Source: a virus (lineage: Duplodnaviria > Caudoviricetes). From it: DNA of 64,000 nucleotides. The notes below the pieces were generated by a model, which saw only the letters and a program-made list of their open reading frames with translations, was not told where the DNA came from and did not search any database. The stretch covers positions 128,001 through 192,000 of the IMG/VR virus record IMGVR_UViG_3300027734_003164. One strand, written 5' to 3'. The position numbers and the translations under genes were made by a program. Positions 38,017 to 62,445 of this stretch are shown in pieces (the first letter of the stretch is position 1; the number at the start of each line of letters is the position of its first letter).

Positions 38017-38030
38017 CTTTAAATAAAATT

Positions 38031-38067: not shown

Positions 38068-38084
38068 AATGAATATTTTGAGGA

Positions 38085-38165: not shown

Positions 38166-39380
38166 ATGAAAAAAATTAAAGTACTTGTTCTAGCTAGTGA
38201 CCGCACAGGAGTTGGAAAATTTAGGTCTATAGACCCTCACGTAATGTTACAAAATAATCACTCAGATGAATTTCACGTAGATATAGATTACGACCCAAAA
38301 ATTAATGATTATAACTATTGGAAACAATATGACATTGTTCACTTCCATAGGTCAATTGGTCAAGATTTTGACCAAGCTAATGATTTAATCAAAAGGTTAA
38401 ACTCTATTGGAGTAATTACAATTATGGATTTAGACGACTATTGGTTGCCGACTAAAGAACACCCAATTCATCAACTAATCATACAGAACAAAATAAATGA
38501 AAAGATAGTTGCAAATTTAAAAGTAGCAGCACATGTTACAACAACAACTTCTTTATTCGCTTCAGAAATATCTAAAATTAATAAAAACGTATACGTTCTT
38601 CCAAACGCCATTAATCCAAAAGAACCTCAATTTAAATATGAAACAAAACCGTCAGATAAACTTCGTTTTGGATGGTTGGGCGGTTCTTCTCACTTACATG
38701 ATTTAAAATTATTAAACGGTGTTACAAATAAATTAAAAGATAGTCATGACAAATTTTCATTGTATCTATGTGGTTTCGATACAAGAGGAAGTGTTACTGA
38801 AATTAATAAAGAAACAGGTGAACAAAAACAAAGACCGATACGACCAGAAGAAACCGTATGGGCACGTTATGAAGAAATTTTTACTGACAATTATAAGTTA
38901 GTTTCTCCCCAACATCTTGAATACCTGAAAAAATTTGAGGATTCTGAATATATTATGGAGTCTGAACCTTTTTACAATCGAGTTTGGACAAAACCTGTTA
39001 CAAGTTACGCTTCAAATTATAGATTATTTGACGTTTCATTAGCTCCGATTGTAAATCATATTTTTAACCGAGTTAAGTCGCAATTAAAAGTTATTGAAGC
39101 TGGTTTTTACAAAAAAGCAATTATTGCTTCAAATGTTGGTCCCTACACTATTGATTTAAAACACGCATTAAAAAATGGTCAATTCTCTGACGGAAATGCA
39201 CTTTTAGTTGATGAAGTAAAAAATCATAGTGATTGGGCTAAAAACATGAAAAAATTAATTGATAATCCTAACTTTGCTTATGACTTGGGACAACGATTGT
39301 ATGAAACGGTTAAAGACACATATGATTTGAATGTGGTCACAAAAAATAGAGCGGAACTTTATAAATCTTTAATAAAATGA
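38166..39380 (+). CDS. GT-B (GT4-like) glycosyltransferase
   Basis: DLDDYW, FGWLGGSSH, DVSLAP...N.VKSQLKVIEAG...AIIAS.VGPY; start set at MKKIKV rather than 38124. Confidence 0.8.
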   Translation: MKKIKVLVLASDRTGVGKFRSIDPHVMLQNNHSDEFHVDIDYDPKINDYNYWKQYDIVHFHRSIGQDFDQANDLIKRLNSIGVITIMDLDDYWLPTKEHPIHQLIIQNKINEKIVANLKVAAHVTTTTSLFASEISKINKNVYVLPNAINPKEPQFKYETKPSDKLRFGWLGGSSHLHDLKLLNGVTNKLKDSHDKFSLYLCGFDTRGSVTEINKETGEQKQRPIRPEETVWARYEEIFTDNYKLVSPQHLEYLKKFEDSEYIMESEPFYNRVWTKPVTSYASNYRLFDVSLAPIVNHIFNRVKSQLKVIEAGFYKKAIIASNVGPYTIDLKHALKNGQFSDGNALLVDEVKNHSDWAKNMKKLIDNPNFAYDLGQRLYETVKDTYDLNVVTKNRAELYKSLIK

Positions 39381-40105
39381 TAAACATACCTATTAACAAA
39401 ATTTTATTTATCGACATTGAAACTGTTGGTATATGTAAGGATTGGCGGACTTGTCAAGAAAATCACCCCAAAATTGCAGAACAATTTGTTAAATACTTTG
39501 ATTGGTTTTTAAAACGATTTCCTGAAGATGACGTTGAGACGAATGGTCTTGAAGAAGAACTTCAAAAAATGAATGATGTTTATTCTTCAAGAGCGGCACT
39601 TGTTCCAGAGTTTGCTAAAATTGTTTGTGTATCAATGGCATTTGTTTTAGAAAACGGTGAAGTAAAAAAACAAACTTTTAAAAATGACAGCGAAGAGGAT
39701 TTATTGTTGGAAGTTAGAAATTTATTAGACCGTTGTCACAAATTAGATTTTTATTTGTGTGGGCATAATTTAAAAAACTTTGACATACCTATGTTGGCAA
39801 AACGTATGATTATTAACAACATTATGCCATCAAAAATACTTCCATCATACGACACTAAACCATGGGAAGTAAAAGCAATTGACACTAAAGAAATTTGGCA
39901 ATACGGTTCGTATAGTTCAATTGGTTCTTTAGATTTAATGTGTTCTTGTTTAGATATTCCAACACCAAAAGATGGTGAAATAAATGGGGGTATGGTTCAT
40001 CAGGCATATTGGAATCAGAATAGACTTGATGAAATTGCAAAATATTGTGAAAAAGATGTTGATGTTTTGATTGAATCAATAAAAAAATTAAAAAGTTTAA
40101 AATAA
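39377..40105 (+). CDS. DnaQ / PolB-like 3'-5' exonuclease
   Basis: FIDIET, GHNLKNFDIP, YCEKDV (DEDDy). Confidence 0.85.
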   Translation: MINIPINKILFIDIETVGICKDWRTCQENHPKIAEQFVKYFDWFLKRFPEDDVETNGLEEELQKMNDVYSSRAALVPEFAKIVCVSMAFVLENGEVKKQTFKNDSEEDLLLEVRNLLDRCHKLDFYLCGHNLKNFDIPMLAKRMIINNIMPSKILPSYDTKPWEVKAIDTKEIWQYGSYSSIGSLDLMCSCLDIPTPKDGEINGGMVHQAYWNQNRLDEIAKYCEKDVDVLIESIKKLKSLK

Positions 40106-40707
40106 TGTTTGAAAATATAAAAGATTTAAAAAATAGCATGAAAGCTTTAAAGGAGCTTCAATCTCAATTTGGTAATGTTGACATGACAAATCCTGAAAGT
40201 ATGTTAAAATCCATGGGACTTAATGTTGATGAAATCAATCAACATTTTGAAGGTCAATTTACATCAGAAGTTAATTTAAATTTTGTGAATAGTAGTGACA
40301 ATCAAAACCCTGAATACGCTTATAAAGGTGATTCGGGGTTTGATTTAAGAGCTTCGGAAGAAAAATGGGTTTTTCCAAACTCAAGAGTTTTAATACCTAC
40401 AGGTTTAAAATTTGACATTCCTGATGGTTATGAAATACAAGTAAGGTCTAAAAGTGGTTTAGCATTAAATCAAGGATTATTTGTTTTAAATTCACCTGGC
40501 ACGGTTGATAGTGGATACTTAGGTGAAATACAAGTTATTTTATTTAACACAACAACAGAAAAAGTTAAAATTGAAAAGGGTCAAAAAATTGCCCAAGCGG
40601 TTCTTTGTCCTGTTGTTAATGGCAAATGGGTTAATTTAACACAAATTTCAAATTTAGGTTCAAAAGACCGAAATGATAATGGATTTGGTTCAACAGGTTT
40701 AGTATGA
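40105..40707 (+). CDS. dut: Trimeric dUTPase with N-terminal extension
   Basis: DSGFDL, RSKSGLA, GTVDSGYLGEI, R..NGFGSTG. Confidence 0.95.
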   Translation: MFENIKDLKNSMKALKELQSQFGNVDMTNPESMLKSMGLNVDEINQHFEGQFTSEVNLNFVNSSDNQNPEYAYKGDSGFDLRASEEKWVFPNSRVLIPTGLKFDIPDGYEIQVRSKSGLALNQGLFVLNSPGTVDSGYLGEIQVILFNTTTEKVKIEKGQKIAQAVLCPVVNGKWVNLTQISNLGSKDRNDNGFGSTGLV

Positions 40708-42344
40708 TTACAGTAGGATTTTCAACAAGAAAAATAGATGACAATTTTGTCTCGATGTTAAAAAAAACGTCAGGAGTAAGTAAATTGGAAATAATACCAA
40801 TCGAAAACAATGGTGTATTTTCTCTTAGTGAAGCTTATAATAAAATTTTAAACGATTCCACTAATGACATTGTTGTATTGATGCATGACGACATTTATTT
40901 TGATAGCAAGAATTGGGCATCAAAAGTTTTAAATTATTTTAAAAGAAATCCTGACTATGGTATTCTTGGTGTTGCCGGCTCAACTTCGTTACCTTCTTCT
41001 GGTAAATGGTGGGAAGATTTTTCAAAACTTAAAGGAATTGTTAATCATGAACATGAAGGAAAAAAATGGGAGTCAAAATATTCAACAAGTAAGGGTAATC
41101 AGTTAGATGACGTATTGTTGGTAGATGGATTATTTATAGCAATTAATAAAAAAAATATTAAACACAACTTTAACGAAGAAGTTAAAGGGTTTCACTTTTA
41201 CGATGTAGATTTTTCTTTTAGAAATTATTTAGAAGATGTTAAAATTGGGGTTATGTATGATGTAAGAGTTACACATAAATCAATTGGTATGACTAATGAA
41301 CAATGGGAAAAAAATAGAGAAGAGTTTGCAGAAAAATTCAAAGATGTTTTACCCGTTAAAATCAAACGAAATCTTACAATCGATTCACCTTTAAAAGTTT
41401 TATTATCTTGTTTATTTTTTAAATCTTTTACAGGTTCAGAAATGTATGTTTATGAATTAGCAAGAGGATTAAAAAAATTAAATTGTGACGTTACGGTACT
41501 ATCAGACATTAATGGACCCTTATCTCAATTAGCAAAACAACAAGGAATCAAAGTCGTTTCATTTCAAGATGCTCCTGGTTACAAAATGGGAGATGGAAAG
41601 TGGGGATTTAACACACCACAAGGGTTTCAACCGACACAACAAAATGTAATGTACAAAATTGGTGATGTTAATTATGATATAATTCATACTCAACACACAC
41701 CCGTTTCAAATCAAATGTGTCAGATGTATCCTAATATTTCAAAAATATCAACAATACATTCTGAAGTCATAGAATTAGAAAATCCAATTATTCACAATTC
41801 AATTAAAAAATATATTTGCATTCGTCCTGAAATACAAAACCATATTGTTGAAAAATTTAATATTGATAAGGATAATACTAAAGTAATTTATAACCCAATC
41901 GACACAAAAAGATTCAATTCAAATAACATTAAAGATGATAATTACGTTTTGTTTGTTGGGACAATTGATTATTTAAGAGAAAATACAATAAGAGATTTAG
42001 TTACATACTCCTCTGAAATTAATAAAGAATTATGGTTAGTTGGTGAAAATAAATCAAATTACTTGGATGATTTATTAAAAAATCCACACGTAAAACATTT
42101 TAACGCAACAAGTAAAGTTGAACAGTATGTTAAAAACTGTTCTGAAACCGCAGGTATTCTTTTGGGAAGAACAACTATTGAAGGTTGGATGTGTAATAAA
42201 CCCGGATGGATTTACAATGTTGAAAGTAGTGGTTATATTTTAGATAAAAAATTACATATGCCGCCGACAGATGTTAGTAAATTTGATTCTATTGAGGTTG
42301 CAAAAAAAATAAAAGAAGAATATATTAAAGTTATAAATCAATGA
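40704..42344 (+). CDS. Fused GT-A (GT2-like) plus GT-B glycosyltransferase
   Basis: N-half VLMHDD...VDGLF...FHFYDVD; C-half FTGSEMYVYELA...HSE...GRT.IEG. Confidence 0.75.
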   Translation: MITVGFSTRKIDDNFVSMLKKTSGVSKLEIIPIENNGVFSLSEAYNKILNDSTNDIVVLMHDDIYFDSKNWASKVLNYFKRNPDYGILGVAGSTSLPSSGKWWEDFSKLKGIVNHEHEGKKWESKYSTSKGNQLDDVLLVDGLFIAINKKNIKHNFNEEVKGFHFYDVDFSFRNYLEDVKIGVMYDVRVTHKSIGMTNEQWEKNREEFAEKFKDVLPVKIKRNLTIDSPLKVLLSCLFFKSFTGSEMYVYELARGLKKLNCDVTVLSDINGPLSQLAKQQGIKVVSFQDAPGYKMGDGKWGFNTPQGFQPTQQNVMYKIGDVNYDIIHTQHTPVSNQMCQMYPNISKISTIHSEVIELENPIIHNSIKKYICIRPEIQNHIVEKFNIDKDNTKVIYNPIDTKRFNSNNIKDDNYVLFVGTIDYLRENTIRDLVTYSSEINKELWLVGENKSNYLDDLLKNPHVKHFNATSKVEQYVKNCSETAGILLGRTTIEGWMCNKPGWIYNVESSGYILDKKLHMPPTDVSKFDSIEVAKKIKEEYIKVINQ

Positions 42345-43009
42345 AATTATTAATAAAGTTTCCAACAAGAGGTAGAGTAGATAAATTTTTTTCAGTATTA
42401 CAAATTTATCATGATTTATGTTTAGATATTGATAATACTGAATTTCTCATATCCATAGATGAAGATGATAATTCTATGAACAACGATGAAGTTATAAATA
42501 AAATAAAGAGTTATAAAAATACAACTCTCAAAATTGGTCTTTCTAATTCTAAAATTCATGCCGTCAATAGGGATTTAAATGAACATAAAAATAAATGGGA
42601 TATTCTTTTATTGGCCTCTGATGACATGATTCCGCAAATAAAAGGTTATGATAAGATTATAAAAGATAATATGTTGTTTAATTATCCAGATTTGGATGGT
42701 GTATTGTGGTTTAATGACGGTTATCAGGGAAACAAATTAAATACACTATGTATTTTAGGTTATAAATATTATAAACGTTTTAATTATATATATCACCCCG
42801 ATTATAAATCATGCTGGTCAGACAATGAATTTATGCTTGTTGGAAATTTGTTACGTAAACAATCATATATAGACCAAGTCATCATTAGACATGAACATCC
42901 GGACTGGGGGTATGGGAATATAGATTTTGTACATGATAATAATGTAAAAGACTTAAGTCATGACTACAACGTATTCCAATTAAGAAAATCAATAAATTTT
43001 GAAATATGA
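42341..43009 (+). CDS. GT-A fold glycosyltransferase-like protein
   Basis: KFPTRGR...DEDD...LASDDMIP...DNEF...I.HEH. Confidence 0.65.
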   Translation: MKLLIKFPTRGRVDKFFSVLQIYHDLCLDIDNTEFLISIDEDDNSMNNDEVINKIKSYKNTTLKIGLSNSKIHAVNRDLNEHKNKWDILLLASDDMIPQIKGYDKIIKDNMLFNYPDLDGVLWFNDGYQGNKLNTLCILGYKYYKRFNYIYHPDYKSCWSDNEFMLVGNLLRKQSYIDQVIIRHEHPDWGYGNIDFVHDNNVKDLSHDYNVFQLRKSINFEI

Positions 43010-43836
43010 AAATATCACTAAACACGATGGTAAAAAATGAAGCGGACACACTTCAAAACGTTTTACCGATATGGAATAAATACAAGGTTGATTATTTTAT
43101 TTTTTACAATGACAATTCAACTGACGAAACCGTAGACGTTATATATGATTTACTACCTGAAGAAAAAATTATTATATTAAATCATCACCTTGAATCTTTT
43201 AATGAAGGGTACCAAAGACAAACTATGATAGATAAAAGTAGAGAACTGGGAATTGATTATATTATATGTTTAGATGCGGATGAACTGTTAAGTAGTAATA
43301 TTACCAAAGACATAACTACTTTCATGAAAAACTATGAAGAATATGACATGAAATTGTTTTGGTATAATGTTGTGAATGATGGACTTATTCTTTATAGAAA
43401 CGACCCAATGTATTCAAATAATTACAGGACTTTTGTATTACCAGTAAAAAACATAGGAGATTTAAATAAAAATGATTGGAAATATCACACACCTAGAACT
43501 CCCGAGGTAAATTTACCTAAAAAATTTACAAAAGATTATGGAATTATACATCTTCAAAGCGTAAATAGAAAATATTATGCAATGAAACAATTATGGTATA
43601 AACATCATGAGTTTAAACATTATAACCACACAGTTGATTTTATTAATGGAAGATATGACTCAGTAGTGAATAATTTAAATTTTAACCCCCAATTTACACC
43701 TAAAGAAATTATAGATGGTATTGACATAGACTTATCGTTTTTTAATCTATTAGAAGTAAAAAAAGGATATTATGATTTTATCATAAACAATAAAAACGAA
43801 GATTTAATAACATTTGGAAAGGAATATTTTATATGA
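43006..43836 (+). CDS. GT2-like glycosyltransferase
   Basis: MVKNEA...DNSTD...LDADE. Confidence 0.7.
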   Translation: MKISLNTMVKNEADTLQNVLPIWNKYKVDYFIFYNDNSTDETVDVIYDLLPEEKIIILNHHLESFNEGYQRQTMIDKSRELGIDYIICLDADELLSSNITKDITTFMKNYEEYDMKLFWYNVVNDGLILYRNDPMYSNNYRTFVLPVKNIGDLNKNDWKYHTPRTPEVNLPKKFTKDYGIIHLQSVNRKYYAMKQLWYKHHEFKHYNHTVDFINGRYDSVVNNLNFNPQFTPKEIIDGIDIDLSFFNLLEVKKGYYDFIINNKNEDLITFGKEYFI

Positions 43837-44570
43837 ATTACACAATAGGAATAACAACATTTTCGGCTAGAATAGATTTTTTAATCAAACTTTTAGAACA
43901 AATACGTTTTTTTACTGAAGTACCAATTATTGTAGTTATTAATGGTGAAAAGAATGGAAAATTATCTGACGATTATTTACTAAAATTATATTCTCTTTTT
44001 TCTAGATACAATCAAATATATCCAATATTTTTTCAAGAAATTAGAGGACTATCAAAAATGTGGAATACGGCTATTATTCATTCGTCTTCTGATAATATAT
44101 TATTGTTGAATGATGATATTGAAATTCACAACAATGATATATTCAAAAAAGTAGAGGAGCTTTCAAATAATAATAGTTTTAACTCAATTTGTAAATTTAA
44201 TGGGTCTTTTTCACATTTTTTTGTTAAGAAAGAATGTATTGAAAAAATTGGATTTTTTGATGAGAGGTTACTAGGATTTGGAGAGGAAGATGGTGATATA
44301 TCATATAGACTTATAAAGGATAGTATGGAACTCCGCTCATTAGGTGTTTCAGGTTTAATTAATATTGTTTCTGATGTAAGGCATTCTGAAATTAAACCGG
44401 GTATTGGTAAATACTCTAAATTTAATAGGGATTTTATATATGGTCAAAAATATGTACCAACTAATCAAGGTATTAAAGGTATGTTTGACACTCCGATGAT
44501 TGAAAACCTACAAAATGAAAATATTAATCCTTACGAAGTATTTTTTAGAGAGAATAAATCAAAATTATAG
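43833..44570 (+). CDS. GT2-like glycosyltransferase
   Basis: LLLNDD...GFFDER..G.GEEDGD. Confidence 0.75.
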   Translation: MNYTIGITTFSARIDFLIKLLEQIRFFTEVPIIVVINGEKNGKLSDDYLLKLYSLFSRYNQIYPIFFQEIRGLSKMWNTAIIHSSSDNILLLNDDIEIHNNDIFKKVEELSNNNSFNSICKFNGSFSHFFVKKECIEKIGFFDERLLGFGEEDGDISYRLIKDSMELRSLGVSGLINIVSDVRHSEIKPGIGKYSKFNRDFIYGQKYVPTNQGIKGMFDTPMIENLQNENINPYEVFFRENKSKL

Positions 44571-44579
44571 AATAGAAAA

Positions 44580-45785
44580 ATGTTAGACTTGAATAATTTA
44601 ATACCTTTTAAAACACTTTTTGAAAGTGATAATAACGGGAGAGAAATTAATATTTACAAATTACATAATGTGCAATTTTATGAAAATAACATTTTTTATC
44701 CAAATGTGATATTAAAGTCTGAAAAAAACGACATAAAACCTATTAATGAAACGGTATTATCATTAAAGGAATTGGATTTTTCATCACATAATAAATCAAT
44801 GTTAGAAATAAAAGATAGAGATTCAAAACCTTATTTTTTCTTCATTTATAATACTGATAACTATTATCATTTTGTGTATGATACACTACCATATTTAATT
44901 ACGTTTTTTGAACTTAAAAAAGAAATCCCCGATTTACAACTTTTGATGAATTACCCTAATTACCAAAAGTTTGAACATTATAAATTTGTTATTGAATTTT
45001 TATATATTTTATCAATAAACAAAGATGATATTACAATTGTAAATCCATCTATCGCATATGATAATTTATACGTATCTAATTCATACACTCACGATGGTAA
45101 ATCAAATATTAAACCAAGAAATGAAGTTTACAAGTTTTACAATAATATGGTTAATTTTATAACTAATGATATTAAAAAAGAAAAATTACCGACAAAAATT
45201 TATATTTCCAGAAGAACATGGATTAATAAAGACACGTCAAATATAGGTACAAATTATACAACAAAAAGAAGATTATTAAATGAAGATGAGATTGTTGAGT
45301 ATTTAAAAACTAAAGGTTTTGTTGAAGTTTTTACTGAAAATCTTTCAACACCTGAGAAAATATTATTATTCAATAATGCGGAACACATTATAGGGCCGAT
45401 AGGTGGTGGGTTATGTAATGCACTATTTTCTAACAAAAAAACAAAATTAACAGTTTTAAATTCACCCACTTTTTTTGACATAAACTATCGGTTTTTATTT
45501 TCGTTTGAAAATGTTAATTATGAAATATTAGATATTTCTGAACATACAGAAAAAAGTAAAATAAAAAAATTCATGAGAGTTAAATTTGATAATAAAGTGG
45601 GTGAAGTGGTTGACATAGATGGTGATAATATTACTATTAATTATAGTGATATGGATGTTGCGGGGTGGAATAATCAAATTGAATTTAAACAAATTATTAA
45701 AAATATAATGGAACTAATCCCTTTAGATGACGGACTTAATTCTGAATGGATAATTGACATTAAAAAACTAAAAGAAATAATATGA
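44580..45785 (+). CDS. GT61 (DUF563-like) glycosyltransferase
   Basis: NYYHF..DTLP, IYISRR, LLNEDE, E.L...E.I.LF..A..I.GP.GGGL.N.LF. Confidence 0.75.
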   Translation: MLDLNNLIPFKTLFESDNNGREINIYKLHNVQFYENNIFYPNVILKSEKNDIKPINETVLSLKELDFSSHNKSMLEIKDRDSKPYFFFIYNTDNYYHFVYDTLPYLITFFELKKEIPDLQLLMNYPNYQKFEHYKFVIEFLYILSINKDDITIVNPSIAYDNLYVSNSYTHDGKSNIKPRNEVYKFYNNMVNFITNDIKKEKLPTKIYISRRTWINKDTSNIGTNYTTKRRLLNEDEIVEYLKTKGFVEVFTENLSTPEKILLFNNAEHIIGPIGGGLCNALFSNKKTKLTVLNSPTFFDINYRFLFSFENVNYEILDISEHTEKSKIKKFMRVKFDNKVGEVVDIDGDNITINYSDMDVAGWNNQIEFKQIIKNIMELIPLDDGLNSEWIIDIKKLKEII

Positions 45786-46600
45786 TTAATTATGTAATTT
45801 ATGGTCATACGGATTATTTAGACGTTTTAAATATCCAAACTGATTACTCACAAAATAAGGGACATTTGACTCTTTTTATAAATGAAAATAATTTAGAACT
45901 AACAGATTTATATGAAAAATATAATGAGGTTATTTTTTATGATGATAAGGGCACTTACGCAACGAGAGTTTTAAGTTGTTTAGAAAAAATAAAGTATGAT
46001 TATATTTTATTTTTTCACGATATTGACATTATATTAAAAAGTGATGATAGGACTATTGAAAAATTGTTTGAGTTTTTAAGAACAAATAATTTTGATAGGG
46101 TCGATTTAAAATTTTCAGATAAGATTAACCCATCGACAAAATTAATTAAAATAAATAATTTAGATGATATATCAGAATGGGAACATATTAATATGAGTGA
46201 AATTGAGAAAAAAAATAATATTCCGTATTTAATTGAACAGGACGATGTGACTAATTACATATATAATGTAAACCCGTCTATATGGAAAAAAGAATCTTTT
46301 ATTGATTTACTTAGTAATTTTAAACATAAAAATTATCGTACAATAGAAGACATTGATGTCCAAGAGTACTCAAAAAAATTCAAAATATTTAAAATGTTTT
46401 CAAACAAAAAACTAAATTGTGGGTATTTCCAATGCTTAGAAAGTTTTGTATACTTACATATAAGTCATAATGGTAAACTTTTACCATTAAATATGAATTT
46501 TGTTACAGTTTACGGTCAATCTTACCGTGATATAAGTAATGAATATATAAAAATTGTAGAAAAATATAATCTAATAAATTCAAATAAATGGTATAAATAA
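45782..46600 (+). CDS. Hypothetical GT-A-like protein (paralog of 47522..48331)
   Basis: YILFFHDIDI, FDRVDL, YNVNPSIWKKE shared with the paralog. Confidence 0.65.
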   Translation: MINYVIYGHTDYLDVLNIQTDYSQNKGHLTLFINENNLELTDLYEKYNEVIFYDDKGTYATRVLSCLEKIKYDYILFFHDIDIILKSDDRTIEKLFEFLRTNNFDRVDLKFSDKINPSTKLIKINNLDDISEWEHINMSEIEKKNNIPYLIEQDDVTNYIYNVNPSIWKKESFIDLLSNFKHKNYRTIEDIDVQEYSKKFKIFKMFSNKKLNCGYFQCLESFVYLHISHNGKLLPLNMNFVTVYGQSYRDISNEYIKIVEKYNLINSNKWYK

Positions 46601-46601
46601 T

Positions 46602-49997: not shown

Positions 49998-50000
49998 CAT

Positions 50001-51455: not shown

Positions 51456-51479
51456 TTTTTTTATCTTATTTTTCTTAAA

Positions 51480-53615: not shown

Positions 53616-53817
53616 AAAAAATTTTAATAGTAGTTAGTGGTGAATGTTTTAAAAGTGGTGGTAGTAACAATAGAAACAGGGGAGATAATGAGTTTTCAAA
53701 TGAACAACAAAAAATAGCAATAGAATCACATATATAGTAGAAAATTGTAACTATTATGACGATTTAAGACTTAATGAGTTTTTAGAAAATCCAGATTTAT
53801 ATAAATTTTACACATGA
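53612..53817 (+). pseudogene. Internally deleted gene: 41-aa N-terminal piece plus out-of-frame 28-aa C-terminal piece
   Basis: MKKILIVVSGECFKSGG...SHI* (53612..53737) begins with an ATGA overlap; a second frame YIVENCNYYDDLRLNEFLENPDLYKFYT* ends in an ATGA overlap with 53814. Confidence 0.7.
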
Positions 53818-54710
53818 GAAATAATGTTATTTTAATTCCCCCAAACCACGCTTTTGGTGATGTTTTGTCTGCAATTAGTATGGTTTATTATCTATTATCG
53901 TATTATAAAAAAGTTTACTTTTACATTAAAGTTGAAAGAGAAAATTATGCGGTTCCTAACTACTATAATCATTATTTTAGGTTTGACCCTTTGTTTAATC
54001 ATAGAATTTTTATTACAGTTAATGCTGATGAATTAATAAATAATTCACAATATGGAGAATACGATATTATTAATATGTCAACAGGAGATTGGCAATCAGC
54101 AAAAACTGATTTTTATAAAGAAACAAAAATAGATAAAAGTTTTTATTTTAATGATTTAAATCCGTTATATAACTCTTTAAATATTCCAGTTGAGCATCAA
54201 ACAAACCCCAATACTCATTTACCAAATCAAAATGTTGAAGTAAATCATTTATTTTATTATAAATTAATTGGATTAAACAATAATGTAAGGATGAATTATT
54301 TTAATTATTATAGAAACATAGAACATGAAATGCAATTTTCTAAAATTGTATTGGAGAGACATGGTTTACAATTAGGGGATAAATATAATATTGTAAATAA
54401 TCCAGTAGGGGGAGCACAGGTAGTTCAAAATAGAATTAATAACAATTACCCAATCATAAATATTAGTCACGCATCTCCTTGTATAGGTTATCTTATGTCA
54501 TTAGTTGAAAACGCAGAAAGTATTCATTTTATAGAAGGTAATAATGTAAATTTTTTCTATCATTCACAATATAAAGGTATTTTTAAATACAATAAAATAA
54601 TAAATTTTTATGTTTATCTTAGAAACAGAAATTGGGAAGGGTTTAATTTAGATTATGCATGGAAAATGATGGATGAACCGAGACTACAGAATTGGAACTT
54701 TTTATTTTAA
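53814..54710 (+). CDS. Hypothetical glycosyltransferase-like protein
   Basis: HAFGDV N-terminal motif reminiscent of GT-B enzymes; operon context. Confidence 0.5.
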   Translation: MRNNVILIPPNHAFGDVLSAISMVYYLLSYYKKVYFYIKVERENYAVPNYYNHYFRFDPLFNHRIFITVNADELINNSQYGEYDIINMSTGDWQSAKTDFYKETKIDKSFYFNDLNPLYNSLNIPVEHQTNPNTHLPNQNVEVNHLFYYKLIGLNNNVRMNYFNYYRNIEHEMQFSKIVLERHGLQLGDKYNIVNNPVGGAQVVQNRINNNYPIINISHASPCIGYLMSLVENAESIHFIEGNNVNFFYHSQYKGIFKYNKIINFYVYLRNRNWEGFNLDYAWKMMDEPRLQNWNFLF

Positions 54711-54727
54711 AAAACAAAATTAAAAAA

Positions 54728-56278
54728 ATGAAAAATAATATACACCTAATTATCCCCATGTCGGGGATAGGAAAAAGATTTATCGATTATGGATATGACA
54801 CACCCAAACCACTTATTGAAGTAGACGGTAAACCAATTATTGAACACGTAGTAGGATTATTTCCAGGTATTGAAAAACTTTCTTTTATATGCAATCAAAC
54901 ACATTTAAGGGACACAAATATGAGGAAAATTTTAAATAAAATAGCCCCTAATTCAAATATTATTGAAGTTCCTGATAATATGAAAAAGGGACCAGTCTAT
55001 GCAGTTTCAAAAGTATTTGACCATATTGATGATAATGAAGAAGTAATTTTTAGTTATTGTGACTATAGTAGTGTTTGGGATTTTAAAAAATTTTTAAAAG
55101 AAAAAGATAATTATGATGGGTTAATACCCTCATACATTGGATTTCATCCTCATATGTTAGGTTCAGATAATTACGCATTTTCAAAAATGGATGGTGACTA
55201 CGTAAAAGAAATACGAGAAAAACGACCATTCACCGATAATAAAATGAATGAGTATGCATCAAATGGCACGTATTATTTTAAATCAGGCTCAATGGTTAAA
55301 AAATACTTCAAAGATTTAATTGATTTAGATATAAATGTTAATGGTGAGTATTATATAAGTTTAGTATATAATTTATTAATACAGGATGGTTTAAAAGTTG
55401 GTGTTTTTGAAATAGATAAAATGCTGCAGTGGGGAACTCCTTATGATTTAGAGGTTTATAAAAAATGGTCTAATTTTTTTAAAAAACCAAAAATGAAAAC
55501 AGTTAACACCCCAAAAGACACAACACTGGTATTACCAATGGCCGGAGACGGTAGTAGATTCAAAGAAGAAAAATACACATTACCAAAACCATTATTAGAT
55601 GTTAATGGAGTTCCTATGGTGATTAATGCCGTCAACGATTTACCATTATGTAATGATAAAATCTTCATAGTAAAAAATGAACACATTAATGAATATGGTA
55701 TAGATGAGGTTATAAAAAAACATTTTGACTCAAAAATTATTCGGATAGATACATTAACTGAAGGTCAAGCATGTACCTGTGAAATAGGTCTAAAAGATTT
55801 TGATGAAAACAAACCGATACTCATTTCCGCATGTGATAATGGAATATACTACGACACCAAAATGTGTCAAGAATTATTGATGGATGAATCAATAGATGTT
55901 TTAGTATGGTCATTTAGGAATAACCAAACAAGTAAGGTGAACCCTAATGCCTATGCGTGGTTAAAGGTTAATTCCGATAATAATATAGAACACGTATCTT
56001 GTAAAAAATTTATTTATGATGACCCACTAAAAACTCATGCGATAATAGGAACTATGTTTTTTAGAAAGGCGAAGTATTTTTTAGAAGGATTACAAAAAAA
56101 TATTAAAGAAAATATACGTACAAATAATGAGTTCTATGTTGATGACGTATTAAATCAAAACATTAAAGATGGTCTTACTGTTAAAGTTTTTGAAGTTGAG
56201 GATTATATATGTTGGGGAACACCTAACGACTATAAAACTTATAATTACTGGAAAGAGTATTTTGATAGGAGTAAATAA
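54728..56278 (+). CDS. Tandem double nucleotidyltransferase (two NTP_transferase domains)
   Basis: IIPMSGIGKRF..GY..PKPLI...WGTPYDL and VLPMAGDGSRF...Y..PKPLL...WGTPNDY; start set at MKNNIH. Confidence 0.85.
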   Translation: MKNNIHLIIPMSGIGKRFIDYGYDTPKPLIEVDGKPIIEHVVGLFPGIEKLSFICNQTHLRDTNMRKILNKIAPNSNIIEVPDNMKKGPVYAVSKVFDHIDDNEEVIFSYCDYSSVWDFKKFLKEKDNYDGLIPSYIGFHPHMLGSDNYAFSKMDGDYVKEIREKRPFTDNKMNEYASNGTYYFKSGSMVKKYFKDLIDLDINVNGEYYISLVYNLLIQDGLKVGVFEIDKMLQWGTPYDLEVYKKWSNFFKKPKMKTVNTPKDTTLVLPMAGDGSRFKEEKYTLPKPLLDVNGVPMVINAVNDLPLCNDKIFIVKNEHINEYGIDEVIKKHFDSKIIRIDTLTEGQACTCEIGLKDFDENKPILISACDNGIYYDTKMCQELLMDESIDVLVWSFRNNQTSKVNPNAYAWLKVNSDNNIEHVSCKKFIYDDPLKTHAIIGTMFFRKAKYFLEGLQKNIKENIRTNNEFYVDDVLNQNIKDGLTVKVFEVEDYICWGTPNDYKTYNYWKEYFDRSK

Positions 56279-56284
56279 AATTAT

Positions 56285-57262
56285 ATGAAAAAAGCACTAA
56301 TAACTGGCATAAATGGTCAGGACGGCTCTTACTTAGCCGAATTATTAATAAGTAAAAACTATGAGGTTTGGGGTACAGTTAAACGTAACTCGGTTTCTGA
56401 AACACAATCCAGTAGAATTGAGCACTTACGGGAAAATAATTTAGTAAATTTAGAATATGCCGATTTAAGTGATATGGCATCTTTAGTAAGAGTCATATCT
56501 AAAGTACAACCTGATGAGGTATATAATTTGGCAGCACAATCACACGTTAGAATAAGTTTTGACCAACCATTATATACTGCAAATGTGACAGGTATTGGTA
56601 CTTTAAACTTATTGGAAGCGGTTAGATTAGTTTCCCCACATTCTAAAATATACCAAGCGTCCTCTTCGGAGATGTTTGGTAATACCATTGATGATGACGG
56701 GTTTCAAAGAGAGACGACCCCAATGAATCCAGTTTCACCATATGGTTGTGCTAAAGTTTTTTCATATAACATATGCAGAAATTATAGAAACTCATATGGT
56801 ATGAAAATATGGAACGGAATTTTATTTAATCATGAATCACCTAGACGAGGGACCAATTTTGTTACTAATAAAGTCGTTAAAGCTGCTGTTAGAATAAGTC
56901 TTGGGTTGCAAGACAAATTGGAAATAGGTAATTTAGATGCGACTAGAGATTGGGGACATGCAAAAGATTACGTTTACGCAATGTGGTTAATGTTGCAATC
57001 TGAAAAGCCAGATGATTATGTTTGCTCAACAGGTATTTCACATTCTGTTAGAGATTTATGTGGTTATGTTTTTAATTCGCTTGGGTTAAATTTTTTAGAC
57101 TATGTTTTAGTTGACGAAAAACATTTTAGACCTGAAGAGTTAGAAAACTTAAAAGGCGATTCTTCAAAACTTAGGTCGGAGTTATTTTGGGAACCAAAAT
57201 ACACGTTTGAGTCAATGTTAGATGAAATGATTAAATATTGGTTAGACTATTATGGAAAATAA
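56285..57262 (+). CDS. gmd: GDP-mannose 4,6-dehydratase
   Basis: LITGINGQDGSYLAE, YNLAAQSHV, YQASSSE, SPYGCAK, FNHESPRRG..FVT.K, RDWGHA.DY. Confidence 0.97.
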   Translation: MKKALITGINGQDGSYLAELLISKNYEVWGTVKRNSVSETQSSRIEHLRENNLVNLEYADLSDMASLVRVISKVQPDEVYNLAAQSHVRISFDQPLYTANVTGIGTLNLLEAVRLVSPHSKIYQASSSEMFGNTIDDDGFQRETTPMNPVSPYGCAKVFSYNICRNYRNSYGMKIWNGILFNHESPRRGTNFVTNKVVKAAVRISLGLQDKLEIGNLDATRDWGHAKDYVYAMWLMLQSEKPDDYVCSTGISHSVRDLCGYVFNSLGLNFLDYVLVDEKHFRPEELENLKGDSSKLRSELFWEPKYTFESMLDEMIKYWLDYYGK

Positions 57263-58163
57263 AATTTTAGTAACAGGAGGGAATGGTTTAGTTGGTCGGG
57301 AATTTGTGGGAGAACAATATTACAAACCAACATCAAAAGAATATAATCTAAAAAATACAGATGACGTAAATCGTTTAATGTTAAAAAGATTTGACAGTGT
57401 AATTCACACTGCAGGTAAAGTTGGTGGGTTAGGAGGGAATATGAATCACAAGGGAGATTTTTTTTATGATAATATTATGATAAATACAAATGTGATTGAA
57501 TCCTCTAGAATCTCCGGAGTAAAAAATTTAGTAGCCTTTTTATCTACATGTGTGTTTCCCGATAATTTAGATTACCCATTAACTGAAAAAAAAATACACA
57601 TGGGACCTCCTCATTTTTCAAATGATGCTTACGCATACGCAAAACGTATGGTTGATGTTCAAATACGGGCATATAAAGAACAATACGGTTTAAATTATAA
57701 ATCAGTCATACCTACTAATATTTATGGTCCAAACGATAATTATGACATTAAAAATGGTCACGTAATTCCTTCACTAATACATAAATGTTATTTAGCGAGA
57801 GAACATAAAACACCACTAACTATTTGGGGTAGTGGGAATCCGCTAAGAGAGTTTATTTTTAGTAGAGATGTTGCTAAATTAACCGAGTGGGTTCTTTTTA
57901 ACTATGACGAAAATGAACCAATAATACTTTCTACCTCGGAGGAGATTTCAATAAAAGAAGTTGTGGGTATAATAGTCGAAATTATGAATTTTAAAGGTGA
58001 AGTTAAGTTTGATACAACAAAACCTGACGGACAATATAGAAAACCTTCAGACAACTCCAAAATTAAAAGTTATTTACCTGACTTTAATTTTACAAACCTT
58101 TTTGATGGATTAAAAGAAACTATTGAATATTTTGAAAAATACTATAATGTTGTAAGAAAATAA
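57252..58163 (+). CDS. fcl: GDP-L-fucose synthase
   Basis: VTGGNGLVG, KVGG.G.N, FLSTCVFP, YAYAKR, TNIYGPNDN, HVIP.L, WG.G.PLREF, KPDG. Confidence 0.95.
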   Translation: MENKILVTGGNGLVGREFVGEQYYKPTSKEYNLKNTDDVNRLMLKRFDSVIHTAGKVGGLGGNMNHKGDFFYDNIMINTNVIESSRISGVKNLVAFLSTCVFPDNLDYPLTEKKIHMGPPHFSNDAYAYAKRMVDVQIRAYKEQYGLNYKSVIPTNIYGPNDNYDIKNGHVIPSLIHKCYLAREHKTPLTIWGSGNPLREFIFSRDVAKLTEWVLFNYDENEPIILSTSEEISIKEVVGIIVEIMNFKGEVKFDTTKPDGQYRKPSDNSKIKSYLPDFNFTNLFDGLKETIEYFEKYYNVVRK

Positions 58164-58167
58164 CCAA

Positions 58168-58902
58168 ATGACAAGAAAAAAAATAACAACAGAAGAACCT
58201 GTAATTCCACAAACATTTTCAAAAAAAGATTTCATAAATGCAACAATCAAAAGAAAACAAAAAAGTAAATTTTTATCTGACAACCAAAAAGACTACTACG
58301 ATATTTTATTAAGTAATCAAATTACAATCTGTTCAGGACCTGCGGGTGTTGGTAAAAGTTACATTTCTATGAAAGCGGCTGTCGATTTATTAATTGACCC
58401 ATCGAACTCATATGAAAAAATAATTATTGTAAGACCTGCGGTTGAGGCTGAAGAAAAATTGGGTTCCTTACCGGGTAATTTAGAAGAGAAATTAGACCCT
58501 TATATTTTTCCATCTTATTATTTATTAAACAAAATTATTGGTAAGGATGTCAGAGAAAAACTAAAAGAGGCTGAAATAATTGAAGTTTTTGCTTTAGCTT
58601 ATATGAGGGGTATGAATATTGATAATTCTATTTTAATATTTGAGGAAGCTCAAAACGCAACACCAAATCAAATTAAATTACTATTGACAAGAATCGGTTT
58701 TAATAGTAAATTTTTCATATCTGGCGATTTGGAACAAACTGATAGATATAAAGATAAAAAACAATCAGGACTATACGACGCCCTTCAAAGATTTCAAAAT
58801 GTAAACGATATTGGAATTTATGATTTTAGAAATGCAAAAAACGTAAGAAACCCATTAATTGGTAAAATTTTAGAAAGATACGATGAAGAAAATAGGAATT
58901 GA
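58168..58902 (+). CDS. phoH: PhoH-family ATPase
   Basis: GPAGVGKS, RPAVE..E.LG.LPG, LAYMRG, EEAQN, GD..Q.D. Confidence 0.95.
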   Translation: MTRKKITTEEPVIPQTFSKKDFINATIKRKQKSKFLSDNQKDYYDILLSNQITICSGPAGVGKSYISMKAAVDLLIDPSNSYEKIIIVRPAVEAEEKLGSLPGNLEEKLDPYIFPSYYLLNKIIGKDVREKLKEAEIIEVFALAYMRGMNIDNSILIFEEAQNATPNQIKLLLTRIGFNSKFFISGDLEQTDRYKDKKQSGLYDALQRFQNVNDIGIYDFRNAKNVRNPLIGKILERYDEENRN

Positions 58903-59530
58903 GGTTAATGGTGTATTAAGAAATACCTTGGGTAAAATTCAACAAACTTATGAAAAGTTTTTGATTGAAAACAACTCAACAGAAAAAACTTATGTTTTGG
59001 ACGAATCAGGTAATACTGAATCAATTATACAGAAAGAAGAGTTTGAATACGAGGTGTTAGGTAATATTGACAGCCTTAATTTATTAAACCATTTTAAGTT
59101 TAAGTCTGACGATGAACTTTATGAGTTTTTATATCAAGAATTTTCGATGCAAATATTTGGTCATGCCGAATCTTCAGAGATGCACACATTTTATACCTTA
59201 AATGACATTTATTTAAAATATCGAAGTACAAATGATATTGTAATTGTCTCTGATGAAATTGGTAAATCTAAACCGGCCACATTATTTTTTTTATCAAAGT
59301 TTGGTTGTCAAATTGAAAAAATTAAATTTTATTCAGACACCACTAAAAACTCAATTTGGGATGAGGTTGATGTTTTAGTTAGTTCAAATCCAAGTTTAAT
59401 TGAAGACCATCCAGAAAACAAAGTTGTTATAAAGTTCAATACTCAATACAACAAAACAAATAAATCTGAACACGAAATCAGTTCACTTAAAGAATTAGAT
59501 GAATGTTTACAAAAATTAGGAATATGTTAG
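58883..59530 (+). CDS. 5'(3')-deoxyribonucleotidase (NT5C)-like protein with degenerate active site
   Basis: IGIEVNGVLRN in place of IxxDxDGVL; overall NT5C-like layout. Confidence 0.55.
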   Translation: MKKIGIEVNGVLRNTLGKIQQTYEKFLIENNSTEKTYVLDESGNTESIIQKEEFEYEVLGNIDSLNLLNHFKFKSDDELYEFLYQEFSMQIFGHAESSEMHTFYTLNDIYLKYRSTNDIVIVSDEIGKSKPATLFFLSKFGCQIEKIKFYSDTTKNSIWDEVDVLVSSNPSLIEDHPENKVVIKFNTQYNKTNKSEHEISSLKELDECLQKLGIC

Positions 59531-59808
59531 AATTTTTAGGTGAGAGATATTATATCGACGTACAGGAAATAGAAAATAAAATTGCAATGTCTGTCCCCAC
59601 TTTGGAATCAACTGAAGTTGAGGGTCAAAACGAACCACATATAAGTGTTTCAAAATGGGAAGTATATAAAAATTTAGTAGATGTTATATTATCCGAAAGA
59701 GAAGAACTTGATGAAAATTTAGGTATACATAGTGCCAAAAATTTATCAATCCCTTTTAAATTCGCATTCAATACTTTACTAATAAACAACATAATAAAAA
59801 AGTTATAA
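59524..59808 (+). CDS. Hypothetical protein
   Basis: MLEFLGERYY...; start set at 59524. Confidence 0.7.
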   Translation: MLEFLGERYYIDVQEIENKIAMSVPTLESTEVEGQNEPHISVSKWEVYKNLVDVILSEREELDENLGIHSAKNLSIPFKFAFNTLLINNIIKKL

Positions 59809-59812
59809 TAAA

Positions 59813-60877
59813 ATGGAATTAGACAAAATTAAAAAAATTGAAACTTCAGTTGAAAAACTTGGAAATAAAACCGCAAGAATTTATTTTTTAGTTCAAGACA
59901 CAAAAGGAAACCCGAAGGCGGGTGTTTCTTACATTTATCAAATGGCTATGTCATTGTTAAAGAAAGGATTTAACGTGAAAATGATTCACGAAACAAAAGA
60001 TTACCAAGGTGTTGGTGATTGGTTAGGAAAAGAATACATGGAAATGGAGCATATCGCAATTGAGGGTCAGAATCTTCCTATTTCACCTGAAGATTTTGTT
60101 GTTATTCCTGAATTGTACGCGCACGTTATGGAGCAACTTAAAAATTATCCATGTGGTAAATTGGTGTTGTGTCAAGCATATGATTACATGTTAGAAACTT
60201 TACCTCCAGGTATTTCATGGGCCAATTATGGGTTTTTAAAAAGTATTAGTACTTCTGAATTTCAAAAAGAATATATCAAATCAGTTTTTAAAAATGTAAG
60301 TGTTGACGTTGTTGAACCTCTTATTTCTGAAGTATTCAGTAAAAAAGACAAACCATCAAAACCAATTGTTTCTATTCACTGTAGAGAACCAAGAGACACT
60401 GCTAAAATTATCAAAAGTTTTTATTTAAAATATCCTCAGTATCGTTGGTTTACTTTTAGAGACATGAAAAACATTAGTCAAACAGACTTTTCAAAGTTTT
60501 TAAAAGAATCTTTTGTTTCGGTTTGGGTCGATAGAGAGTCAGGGTTTGGTACATTCCCAATCGAAAGCATGATTTCAAATACACCAGTAATTGGTGTGGT
60601 TCCTAATTTGAAACCTGATTGGATGAATGAAAATAACGGTATTTGGACATATTCTTTTAACGAAATTATCGACGTTTTAGCAAATTTTGCACAAAATTGG
60701 TTAGAAGACAACATCAACGAAGAGTTGTATACTAAAATGTCCGAAACTGGTGAAAAATATCAAAATAAAGAATCATTTGAAAATAAAATTGAATCTTTGT
60801 TTACTGGATATTTTAACGTAAGAAAAGAAATGTTTAGTCAACAATTAGAAAAATTAAAAATAACTGAAGAAAAATAA
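59813..60877 (+). CDS. GT-B (GT4-like) glycosyltransferase
   Basis: VVIPE..., VWVDRESGFG.FPIE.M...P.IG. Confidence 0.7.
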   Translation: MELDKIKKIETSVEKLGNKTARIYFLVQDTKGNPKAGVSYIYQMAMSLLKKGFNVKMIHETKDYQGVGDWLGKEYMEMEHIAIEGQNLPISPEDFVVIPELYAHVMEQLKNYPCGKLVLCQAYDYMLETLPPGISWANYGFLKSISTSEFQKEYIKSVFKNVSVDVVEPLISEVFSKKDKPSKPIVSIHCREPRDTAKIIKSFYLKYPQYRWFTFRDMKNISQTDFSKFLKESFVSVWVDRESGFGTFPIESMISNTPVIGVVPNLKPDWMNENNGIWTYSFNEIIDVLANFAQNWLEDNINEELYTKMSETGEKYQNKESFENKIESLFTGYFNVRKEMFSQQLEKLKITEEK

Positions 60878-60881
60878 TATT

Positions 60882-61694
60882 ATGGAAAACTTAGAAAAAT
60901 TAGATGTATCGGTAATTCTACCAATTGATTCGGCAAATAATATCATGTTTGAAGATTTATTCAACAGAGCCATTACATCCATTCAAACACAAACAAAACC
61001 TATTAATGAATTAGTAATTGTTCATTCGGGTGAAGAGTTATTAAAAAATAAATTAGATAATTACAACTTTAGTGGTCTAACAGTTACTATGGTAGAAAAT
61101 CAAAATGAATTTGATTTTTGTTCTCAAGTAAATATTGGTGTAAAACACGCTAAAAGTACTTGGATTTCTATTTTAGAATTTGATGATGAATATTCTACAA
61201 TTTGGTTTAAAAATTTCGATAGATATAGTAAATCATATTCTGAAGTTGATGCATTTTTACCTATTGTTGTTGATACTGACGAAAAAGGAGTTTTTGTTGG
61301 GTTTACTAATGAAGCCACATTTGCAGTTAGTATGAACTCAGAAATTGGTTACTTAAATAATGATACACTTTTGAATTATCAAAACTTTCAATCAAGTGGA
61401 ATTGTTATTAAAAAGTCAGTTTATGAAGAAAACGGCGGGTTTAAATCAAGTATGAAATTAACTTTTGTGTATGAGTTCTTATTAAGATTAACTTATAATT
61501 CTGTTAAAATTATGACAATTCCAAGAATTGGTTACAAACACATGAATTTAAGACCAGGTTCTATATTTTGGAATTATAAAAATGGGGAAAGTAAAATTAC
61601 AGATGATGAGGTTTCGTTTTGGATTGAGTCGGCAAAAAAAGAACATTTTTTCACAACCGATAGGAACATAAAATACGAACCACAAAATGTATAA
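60882..61694 (+). CDS. GT2 glycosyltransferase
   Basis: VSVILP, Q.NIGV..A...W.SILEFDD, FLLRL. Confidence 0.75.
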   Translation: MENLEKLDVSVILPIDSANNIMFEDLFNRAITSIQTQTKPINELVIVHSGEELLKNKLDNYNFSGLTVTMVENQNEFDFCSQVNIGVKHAKSTWISILEFDDEYSTIWFKNFDRYSKSYSEVDAFLPIVVDTDEKGVFVGFTNEATFAVSMNSEIGYLNNDTLLNYQNFQSSGIVIKKSVYEENGGFKSSMKLTFVYEFLLRLTYNSVKIMTIPRIGYKHMNLRPGSIFWNYKNGESKITDDEVSFWIESAKKEHFFTTDRNIKYEPQNV

Positions 61695-62437: not shown

Positions 62438-62445
62438 AATTTATC

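Follow-up and report, generated by a model that had tools for sequence, protein, structure and literature searches.

A positionally fixed glycan-biosynthesis locus with four core transferases and a swappable cassette in a freshwater jumbo myovirus

Glycosyltransferase (GT)-rich islands of large aquatic phages are known, and they have usually been dismissed, without test, as modifiers of host lipopolysaccharide (LPS). Here we describe a locus of this kind at positions 38166–61694 of a 64-kb stretch of DNA (64,000 nucleotides, hereafter the window) from an uncultured tailed virus of lake water (Duplodnaviria; Caudoviricetes), which devotes about 24 kb to it; the window corresponds to positions 128,001 to 192,000 of the IMG/VR record IMGVR_UViG_3300027734_003164. 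The phage is a freshwater jumbo myovirus, and the region is a glycan-biosynthesis locus with a fixed place in its genome. The architecture of the locus, of which we are highly confident, consists of four core transferases and one swappable cassette lying between fixed anchors. A preliminary description had treated the whole as a single glycan operon, which was overstated, and had made no mention of the exonuclease, dUTPase and PhoH genes that it contains; core genes, a swappable cassette and genes of nucleotide metabolism together make up the region, which is not a uniform operon.

From position 38124 to the end of the window, open reading frames (ORFs) form an unbroken + strand array, and 27 genes, all on this strand, lie within 38166–61694, the first starting at the ATG at 38166 according to an alignment of 16 homologues. 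The earlier picture of about 25 same-strand genes in tight coupling is thus borne out: the junctions (n = 26) include 11 ATGA and two TAATG overlaps, and most of the others overlap by 8–28 nt or are separated by at most 9 nt. The sole sizeable intergenic gap of the array is the 198 nt at 53616–53813. No convincing intergenic terminator was found within the array, all + strand terminator-like sites being intragenic with poor T tails, as had also been proposed. The promoter-like element reported upstream of the locus is present at 38085; generic sigma-70-like matches occur at chance level (106 found vs 103 expected; 96 vs 90), and the promoter call for this element is therefore based on its position only. 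The window as a whole is low-GC phage DNA (0.25–0.35), and the cassette (0.25–0.28) lies below its flanks (0.29–0.32).

Comparison with related contigs separates the conserved from the variable part of the locus. The transferase genes common to the lineage are those at 38166, 40704, 59813 and 60882 (genes are named here by their first position), and they bracket a variable segment, a middle block of 14–15 kb, that extends from 42339 to about 57700. The nearest relative, G001 (a 63-kb IMG/VR record), is collinear with the window over 10690–42338 and 56277–64000 at 93–97% identity, and in place of the window cassette it carries an unrelated 9.2-kb block with genes for a GT2 enzyme, a GT11 fucosyltransferase, UDP-glucose dehydrogenase, FkbM methyltransferases, NAD synthase and an epimerase. 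On the left the break is sharp, with 94–96% nucleotide identity to G001 through base 42338 and none thereafter, and it coincides exactly with the stop/start overlap that follows the 546-aa transferase gene. On the right side identity is 72–82% in gmd, reaches 90% at 57.5 kb and is 97–98% from 57.8 kb onward, which places the right recombination boundary inside fcl, at about 57.5–57.8 kb. Contigs from other freshwater runs span both cassette junctions of the window arrangement without a difference, and the arrangement is therefore real and not an assembly artefact; the joints seen in these contigs all had sides of fewer than 30 letters and were taken as noise.

The same division is seen in larger samples. 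Among 59 loci collected around the 546-aa transferase, the left-flank genes recur in 46–59 and the cassette genes in 0–8; the first gene of the locus, 38166, is found in 51 of these 59 with a median identity of 79%. Among 80 loci collected around PhoH, each gene from PhoH to 62832 is present in 79 of 79, while 12 of 16 cassette genes are present in none (0/64); of these 64 relatives, 38 have gmd and 32 have an fcl-like gene. Complete islands, defined by anchor pairs on the same contig only, number 19, measure 4.8–16.6 kb and hold 231 ORFs in 130 families, 88 of which are confined to a single island. Relatives that are 89–96% identical upstream carry four different cassettes, none with detectable nucleotide similarity to that of the window. 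The recurrent families are nearly all glycan-related, and a Pfam tally of 108 family representatives counts 10 GT2 enzymes, seven FkbM methyltransferases, five epimerases, four GT11 enzymes, four RmlD proteins, three DegT aminotransferases and two UDP-glucose dehydrogenases. The pattern of conserved flanks around a variable core, for which a comparison of related contigs had been suggested, is clearly present.

Cassettes also move between backbones. The window cassette type recurs, collinear and in the same genomic slot, in three other records (L155, a contig of 277 kb; L054; and L154, a contig of 331 kb). Between L154 and the window the cassette proteins are 51–81% identical, as against 31% for PhoH and 53% for the anchor transferase, so that the cassette is better conserved than the backbone, which indicates whole-cassette transfer between divergent phages; 16–18 cassette genes keep their order in phages in which PhoH is only 31% identical. 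Old cassette types, lower GC and replacement between flanks are also how O-antigen and capsule loci behave in bacterial populations. Smaller changes are visible within the cassettes as well. The counterpart of 53814 in both L154 and L155 has the phosphatase gene on one side and the phrog_34507 gene on the other, and the window shows a local order swap; the gap at 53616–53813 may be the scar of such a local rearrangement. In L155, at 19161–20025, two neighbouring ORFs (140 and 145 aa) together make up one DegT/DnrJ-family aminotransferase, probably a broken gene in the cassette of that phage.

Families were assigned with Pfam, PHROGs and NCBIfam profiles, and with Foldseek and Atlas neighbours in structure and in language-model features; the resulting features are listed in Table 1. 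The locus encodes at least nine well-supported glycosyltransferases together with Gmd, Fcl and a tandem sugar-1-phosphate nucleotidyltransferase, so that the sugar-activation enzymes noted previously are confirmed and a GDP-fucose route (Gmd plus Fcl) is present. The well-supported transferases are 38166, 40704, 42341, 43006, 44580, 49110, the N-terminal domain of 50001, and 60882, and the cassette of the window strain holds about 10 further transferase-like proteins beyond the core. With regard to the classes named before, GT2 (43006, 60882 and one half of 40704), a GT4 domain (40704) and GT61 (44580) stand, and the exostosin-like class does not, since no exostosin-like match was found among the locus proteins, the nearest being the sub-threshold RXYLT1_C match of 46602 (E 0.002).

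Table 1. Features of the glycan-biosynthesis locus and its surroundings (window coordinates; strand as + or -, with a point for a bidirectional element)
Feature	Position	Strand	Evidence or remark
898-aa Cys-, Ser-, Thr-rich protein, late motif upstream	32769–35465	-	perfect (PT)13 linker, residues 689–715
TATTTAT[ATC] motif sites	15433, 17541, 19062, 23443, 27264, 28000, 35480, 35494, 62446		
Terminator-like hairpin, bidirectional, 20-bp stem between A and T runs	38028–38070	.	closes upstream late unit
Promoter-like TTGATT-N17-TATATT (TTG-N20-TATATTT), just past hairpin	38085–38114	+	function inferred from position only
Core glycosyltransferase 1, GT-B-like	38166–39380	+	phrog_7162 E 1.4e-46; weak Glyco_trans_1_4
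PolB-exo-like 3'-5' exonuclease, core, not glycan-related	39377–40105	+	PF10108 E 2.7e-12; 52/59 loci
dUTPase, core, not glycan-related	40105–40707	+	PF00692 E 5e-25
Core glycosyltransferase 2 (546 aa), left anchor of cassette	40704–42344	+	59 loci
Glycosyltransferase, cassette	42341–43009	+	phrog_14945 E 2e-17
GT2, cassette	43006–43836	+	PF13704 + PF00535
GT2-like, cassette, lead only	43833–44570	+	PF00535 E 1.3e-4, 22.3 bits vs 23.3-bit cut-off
GT61, cassette	44580–45785	+	PF04577 E 3.7e-20
Probable GT-A-type, HDID motif, cassette	45782–46600	+	alignment motif; unproven
Possible transferase, cassette, lead only	46602–47525	+	RXYLT1_C E 0.002, below cut-off
Paralogue of 45782, cassette	47522–48331	+	45% identity; HDxD motif common to pair
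Orphan phage family, cassette	48322–49113	+	GT-A-like DNNS + QDxF motifs; >220 homologues
Compact GT-B-fold protein, cassette	49110–49997	+	Atlas model, predicted template-modelling score (pTM) 0.87
GT-A (WavE-like) + phosphoribulokinase/uridine-kinase-family P-loop kinase fusion, cassette	50001–51455	+	PF00485 E 2.5e-34
Class II aldolase / 4-epimerase family, cassette	51480–52151	+	PF00596 E 9e-25
DUF1796 protein, cassette	52148–52867	+	PF08795 E 3e-9
Small (99-aa) HAD-type phosphatase-like protein, cassette	52864–53163	+	TIGR01689 capsule biosynthesis phosphatase E 8e-8, below cut-off
Protein without functional assignment, cassette	53160–53615	+	phrog_34507 E 1.7e-47
41-codon ORF (MKKILIVVSGE...) in non-coding gap	53616–53813	+	
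Orphan phage family, cassette	53814–54710	+	104 homologues
Tandem double sugar-1-phosphate nucleotidyltransferase (528 aa), cassette	54692–56278	+	PF12804 + PF00483
GDP-mannose 4,6-dehydratase (Gmd), optional, in divergent segment	56285–57262	+	PF16363 E 5e-120
GDP-L-fucose synthase (Fcl)	57252–58163	+	NF047922 E 2.5e-66, below equivalog cut-off
PhoH-like ATPase, core, right anchor, not glycan-related	58168–58902	+	PF02562 E 1e-61; 80/80 loci
Two conserved genes, 215 + 101 aa	58883–59808	+	79/79 loci; no family matches
Core glycosyltransferase 3, GT1-like, lead only	59813–60877	+	Atlas feature neighbours with PF00534 (0.98–0.99); 79/79 loci
Core glycosyltransferase 4, GT2	60882–61694	+	PF00535 E 2e-6; 79/79 loci

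The left anchor, 40704, combines two Pfam transferase modules, a GT-A domain (Glyco_tranf_2_5) as its N-terminal half and the GT4 N-terminal domain as its C-terminal half. The Atlas model of 49110 matches GT1/GT4 clusters and giant-virus transferases with template-modelling (TM) scores of 0.6–0.8. The most unusual composition is that of 50001, whose N-terminal 215 residues gave an AlphaFold2 (AF2) model of high predicted local distance difference test score (pLDDT 89.9; 40-sequence alignment), with Foldseek matches to the GT6 enzyme BoGT6a (E 3e-7) and to a WavE LPS-synthesis cluster (TM 0.79, E 1.5e-15). This fusion has more than 1500 full-length homologues, chiefly on large phage contigs, where the source annotation is ‘uridine kinase’; it is not a Calvin-cycle gene, and its composition suggests phosphorylation of a glycan residue coupled to transfer, or else an unusual sugar-activation step. 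A pentulose-activation pathway might be read into the genes at 50001–56278, and the phosphoribulokinase (PRK)-like/transferase fusion would fit glycan-residue phosphorylation as well as it would fit sugar activation. The two domains of the nucleotidyltransferase 54692 span residues 20–254 and 276–508, and the protein is 62–64% identical in distant carriers of the same cassette. The aldolase-family enzyme 51480 reaches no NCBIfam equivalog cut-off.

Other cassette proteins are less clearly placed. The AF2 model of 45782 is poor (pLDDT 44.8; 4-sequence alignment) and recovers only an N-terminal Rossmann-like part, so the GT-A label of this protein is a motif-level guess. For 48322 there was no Pfam or Protein Data Bank (PDB) match despite its more than 220 homologues, and its transferase label comes from motifs only; the 53814 family likewise gave no Pfam or PDB match with its 104 homologues, the core protein 59813 itself has no Pfam match, and the 41-codon ORF of the gap has no significant match in related cassettes. 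Of 20 ORFs compared with PHROGs, 16 had no match. Sequence searches of the PDB, with single proteins and with profiles of 38166, 40704, 44580, 48322 and 53814, gave nothing useful, the sole match being a marginal one (E 0.007) between the GT-A part of 40704 and ‘ATP synthase subunits region ORF 6’. Viral proteins make up 86–100% of the Atlas neighbours of 45782, 49110 and 59813, and all of those of 45782.

None of the cassette or glycosyltransferase proteins contains a transmembrane-like segment, and one sub-threshold segment was seen in the exonuclease; proteins with two or more such segments number zero among 35 window ORFs and zero among the 231 island ORFs. No Pfam match to an initiating phosphoglycosyl transferase of the WbaP/WecA type was found among the window ORFs, and membrane proteins of the Gtr/Oac type, whether flippase, transferase or acetyltransferase, are absent from the window and island ORFs. 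Five near-complete relatives lack both Bac_transf (PF02397) and Glycos_transf_4 (PF00953), and likewise Wzx (PF01943) and Wzy_C (PF04932), all of which score in control genomes; the Wzm/Wzt ABC-exporter families were not searched. On these predictions the enzyme set of the locus is soluble.

Upstream of the locus lie genes for a 1067-aa tail sheath and a baseplate hub, two ORFs of about 2,190 aa, and genes for a helicase and a family-B DNA polymerase. Two classes of motif occur in the window: TTG-N19/20-TATATTT stands ahead of the helicase (25461), the polymerase (32400, - strand) and the glycan locus (38085), and TATTTAT[ATC] lies within 40 nt of the starts of the sheath and other structural genes. 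In this small motif sample no TATTTAT[ATC] site precedes a gene of the locus. The two classes would be consistent with early/middle and late promoters, respectively. The sheath is rich in serine and threonine (19.9% S+T, vs 11.3% in the locus proteins), and the 898-aa protein with the (PT)13 linker, which has no Pfam or PHROG match, contains a Ser/Thr-rich segment at about residues 539–607 (nt 33645–33849) that does not align with G001, the relative at 93–97% identity, and so is one of only a few non-aligning places between it and the window. Both had been put forward as candidate glycan acceptors and, attachment of a glycan aside, both exist as described. A phage Fe/Mn superoxide dismutase (Sod_Fe_N + Sod_Fe_C) with about 35 extra N-terminal residues is encoded at 27276–27995, directly downstream of a TATTTAT-type late motif.

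Related contigs of 272–304 kb have estimated completeness of 93–100%, one protein of the window itself lies on a contig of 216 kb, and cassette DNA occurs in several freshwater metagenome runs, no RNA run being listed for it. A histone-like protein of the Hc1 family (PF07432; 59–73 aa) is present in all five near-complete relatives (G002–G006), and among 14 control genomes Hc1 scores only in Bacteroides thetaiotaomicron. The moraphages are freshwater phages of 200–307 kb with PolB, PhoH, T4-like tail genes, Hc1 and predicted Bacteroidota hosts, and four glycosyltransferase orthogroups are listed among their core genes (PMC12619734). The lineage of the window is probably this moraphage group infecting Bacteroidota, a match made by traits and not by sequence. 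Each of the five near-complete relatives has one thymidylate-synthase-family gene. Of four tested, three pass the thymidylate synthase equivalog cut-off (NCBIfam, 108 bits) at 295–310 bits, and for the protein of G002 that model gives 78 bits and NF002495 gives 312.6 bits, just under the 327-bit cut-off of the latter; with such ordinary thymidylate synthases, the relatives give no sign of a dCMP/dUMP hydroxymethylase. The ThyA proteins of G005, G004 and G003 (L150, L152 and L153) are 330–366 aa long, and their match to the model is broken into two or three stretches, which implies a predicted insertion of about 30–70 residues in the middle of the enzyme.

The gene content supports the view, already expressed in the preliminary description, that this phage carries the genes for building its own complex glycan, whatever the acceptor may be. 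With somewhat less than even confidence, we favour a strain-specific glycan that is assembled in the cytoplasm, with virion proteins as its most likely place of attachment; how core and cassette enzymes share the work, when they act and on which acceptor is what we infer. During infection, the soluble enzymes of the locus would make activated sugars, including GDP-L-fucose, and in the host cytoplasm the core transferases would build a common inner glycan to which the cassette enzymes would append a strain-specific outer part. The acceptor would most likely be proteins of the phage particle, with the Ser/Thr-rich sheath and the late 898-aa linker protein as candidates, and recombination in the conserved flanks swaps whole cassettes and so generates a serotype-like polymorphism. 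A virion or cytoplasmic target is favoured because there is no polytopic membrane protein in the 231 island ORFs, because the priming transferase, flippase and polymerase are missing from all five near-complete relatives, because four transferases belong to the core of the lineage, and because the gene families are mostly viral. As precedents, the virions of mycobacteriophages, chloroviruses and Megavirinae are, as cited in these sources, glycosylated by virus-encoded soluble enzymes from clade-specific clusters (PMC12619734, PMC10117803, PMC9614988).

Several observations weigh against a target on the virion. The promoter-like motif is of the helicase/polymerase type and not the TATTTAT type of the structural genes, so that late co-expression is not obvious. 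The locus lies among nucleotide-metabolism genes, outside the structural module, and known mycobacteriophage glycosylation genes are placed inside that module. O-antigen transferases, too, are mostly soluble or peripheral, and the phage could make use of host undecaprenyl-phosphate priming and export, which leaves the lack of membrane genes suggestive and not decisive. Finally, 45782, 47522, 48322 and 53814 are cassette ORFs without a proven fold.

The main rival is remodelling of the host envelope, which we consider rather doubtful: phage enzymes would act on host undecaprenyl-phosphate-linked O-antigen, capsule or glycoprotein precursors, and the host machinery for priming, flipping and ligation would put the altered glycan on the surface of the infected cell, where it might block superinfection by other phages, stop progeny from re-adsorbing to lysing cells or change grazing. 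Cassettes that resemble O-antigen or capsule clusters minus the processing genes (sugar-nucleotide enzymes, GT2, GT11, GT61 and FkbM), that lie below their flanks in GC and that interchange between conserved flanks count in favour of such a role; the WavE-like domain of 50001 hints at chemistry of the LPS-core type, and a promoter-like motif of the replication-gene type suits an early function. It is also the published view of similar islands in pelagimyophages and cyanomyophages, which have been read as serving host O-chain modification and coinfection avoidance (PMC7029224). The 19 islands, however, encode no polytopic membrane protein, none of the five near-complete genomes has a priming transferase, Wzx or Wzy, and the 130 families of these islands would be ill-suited to host flippases and polymerases, which are usually structure-specific. 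Four transferases in the strict core of a lineage whose other proteins are 31–80% identical would be unusual for an accessory host modification, and the gene families are mostly viral. Known seroconverting phages, moreover, work through Gtr-, Oac- or Wzy-type membrane proteins.

Clearly improbable is a different soluble acceptor, such as host cytoplasmic proteins, a small molecule, a lipid, or a free oligo- or polysaccharide released at lysis or serving as a decoy. All the enzymes are soluble, which would suit this proposal, and no substrate is assigned to the kinase–transferase fusion, the aldolase-family enzyme or the phosphatase; at least 10 transferases and the strain-level replacement of cassettes nevertheless point to a structure exposed to recognition rather than to an intracellular metabolite, and the locus contains no scaffold of polyketide synthase, non-ribosomal peptide synthetase or lipid genes. 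That the locus has no single product, being an accretion zone of unrelated sugar-related auxiliary genes, is very unlikely. The interspersed exonuclease, dUTPase and PhoH genes and the many singleton families speak for it; the preserved order of 16–18 genes across backbones and the co-conservation of whole cassettes, the start/stop overlaps that couple the genes, and the nearly uniform glycan character of the recurrent families speak against it. As to DNA, diverse glycans made by phage transferases have been reported (Pyle et al. 2024, as cited in PMC12619734), the locus sits beside dUTPase, exonuclease and PhoH genes, and one Atlas neighbour cluster of 49110, at rank 62, carries T4-Gluco-transf. 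Glycosylation of hydroxymethylated bases against restriction in the manner of T-even phages, with cassette diversity reflecting an arms race with modification-dependent nucleases, is the least likely reading of all, given the ordinary thymidylate synthases of the relatives, the lack of a Pfam match (E ≤0.01) to the T4 alpha- and beta-glucosyltransferase families in 30 window ORFs, and a fucose pathway, methyltransferases, aminotransferases and more than 10 transferases per genome, which exceed the needs of any known DNA glycan.

Among known systems, the O-antigen and capsule serotype loci of bacteria, such as rfb of E. coli, which lies between galF and gnd, are alike in combining sugar-nucleotide genes with many transferases, in whole-cassette replacement between flanks, in lower GC, in a gradient of divergence in a flanking gene (here gmd/fcl) and in old cassette types that occur across divergent backbones. 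They differ in that the present locus belongs to a jumbo phage genome of lytic type, has four core transferases outside the cassette, and is without a priming transferase, flippase, polymerase or ligase, all of which are missing from related complete genomes as well (Wzm/Wzt again apart). Viral systems of virion glycosylation, such as those of the Megavirinae fibril (PMC10117803) and the chlorovirus capsid (PMC9614988), share soluble viral transferases, sugar-nucleotide pathways of their own and clade- or strain-specific cluster content, and the structural neighbours of two window proteins include transferases of giant viruses. In those systems, however, the glycan is on the virion, whereas the window locus is known from its genes alone, and replacement here occurs between strains that are 93–97% identical. 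Mycobacteriophages carry O-glycans on the capsid and tail tube (Freeman et al. 2023, as cited in PMC12619734), but with 2–4 transferases against far more here, and the window locus stands among replication and nucleotide genes.

The pelagimyophage and cyanomyophage islands (PMC7029224; cyanophage S-SCSM1, PMC9602691) are likewise non-syntenic sets of glycosyltransferase and deoxy-sugar genes in large aquatic myoviruses, and the Gmd of the window is 52% identical to a cyanophage Gmd. Their host recognition cluster, however, lies in the structural module between VrlC and gp14, together with tail fibres, whereas the window island lies between a two-domain transferase and gmd/phoH, with sharp anchors, four core transferases and predicted Bacteroidota hosts, and no fibre-like ORF was seen in it. 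With the moraphages the lineage shares genome size, freshwater habitat, PolB, PhoH, a sheath and baseplate hub, Hc1 and four conserved transferases, but no cassette locus, hypervariability or sugar pathways are described in the moraphage paper (PMC12619734). T-even DNA glucosylation and the seroconverting Gtr/Oac phages also use phage-encoded glycosyltransferases; the window lineage differs from the former in showing no sign of a hydroxymethylase, and the window locus from the latter in having no membrane proteins of the GtrA/GtrB or acetyltransferase type. The fixed anchors with the four-core/cassette architecture, its scale and the transfer of cassettes across backbones did not appear in the papers that we found.

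It is conceivable, if rather unlikely, that the four-enzyme core and the exchanged cassettes amount to a viral ‘serotype’ system, in which a strain-specific particle coat is kept polymorphic by negative frequency-dependent selection; host glycan-sensing defences or receptors, competing phages, grazers and particle adhesion are possible, equally speculative agents of such selection. If this were true, no comparable O-antigen-like system of antigenic variation would have been described before in viruses of bacteria, and the GT-A/PRK-like kinase fusion would mark a new glycan-phosphorylating or ketose-handling step. With fixed anchors, a core of four transferases and dozens of soluble cassettes that can replace one another, the locus has an anatomy plain enough for an experiment to be built on it. 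If the glycan is on the host surface, it would provide superinfection exclusion without any membrane protein. If it is on the virion, phages of abundant lake Bacteroidota would bear serotype-like coats, which would matter for host range, for the evasion of defences, for the stickiness of particles and for carbon flow, and a rich source of uncharacterised transferase families would be opened up, the larger of which have from hundreds to more than 1500 members.

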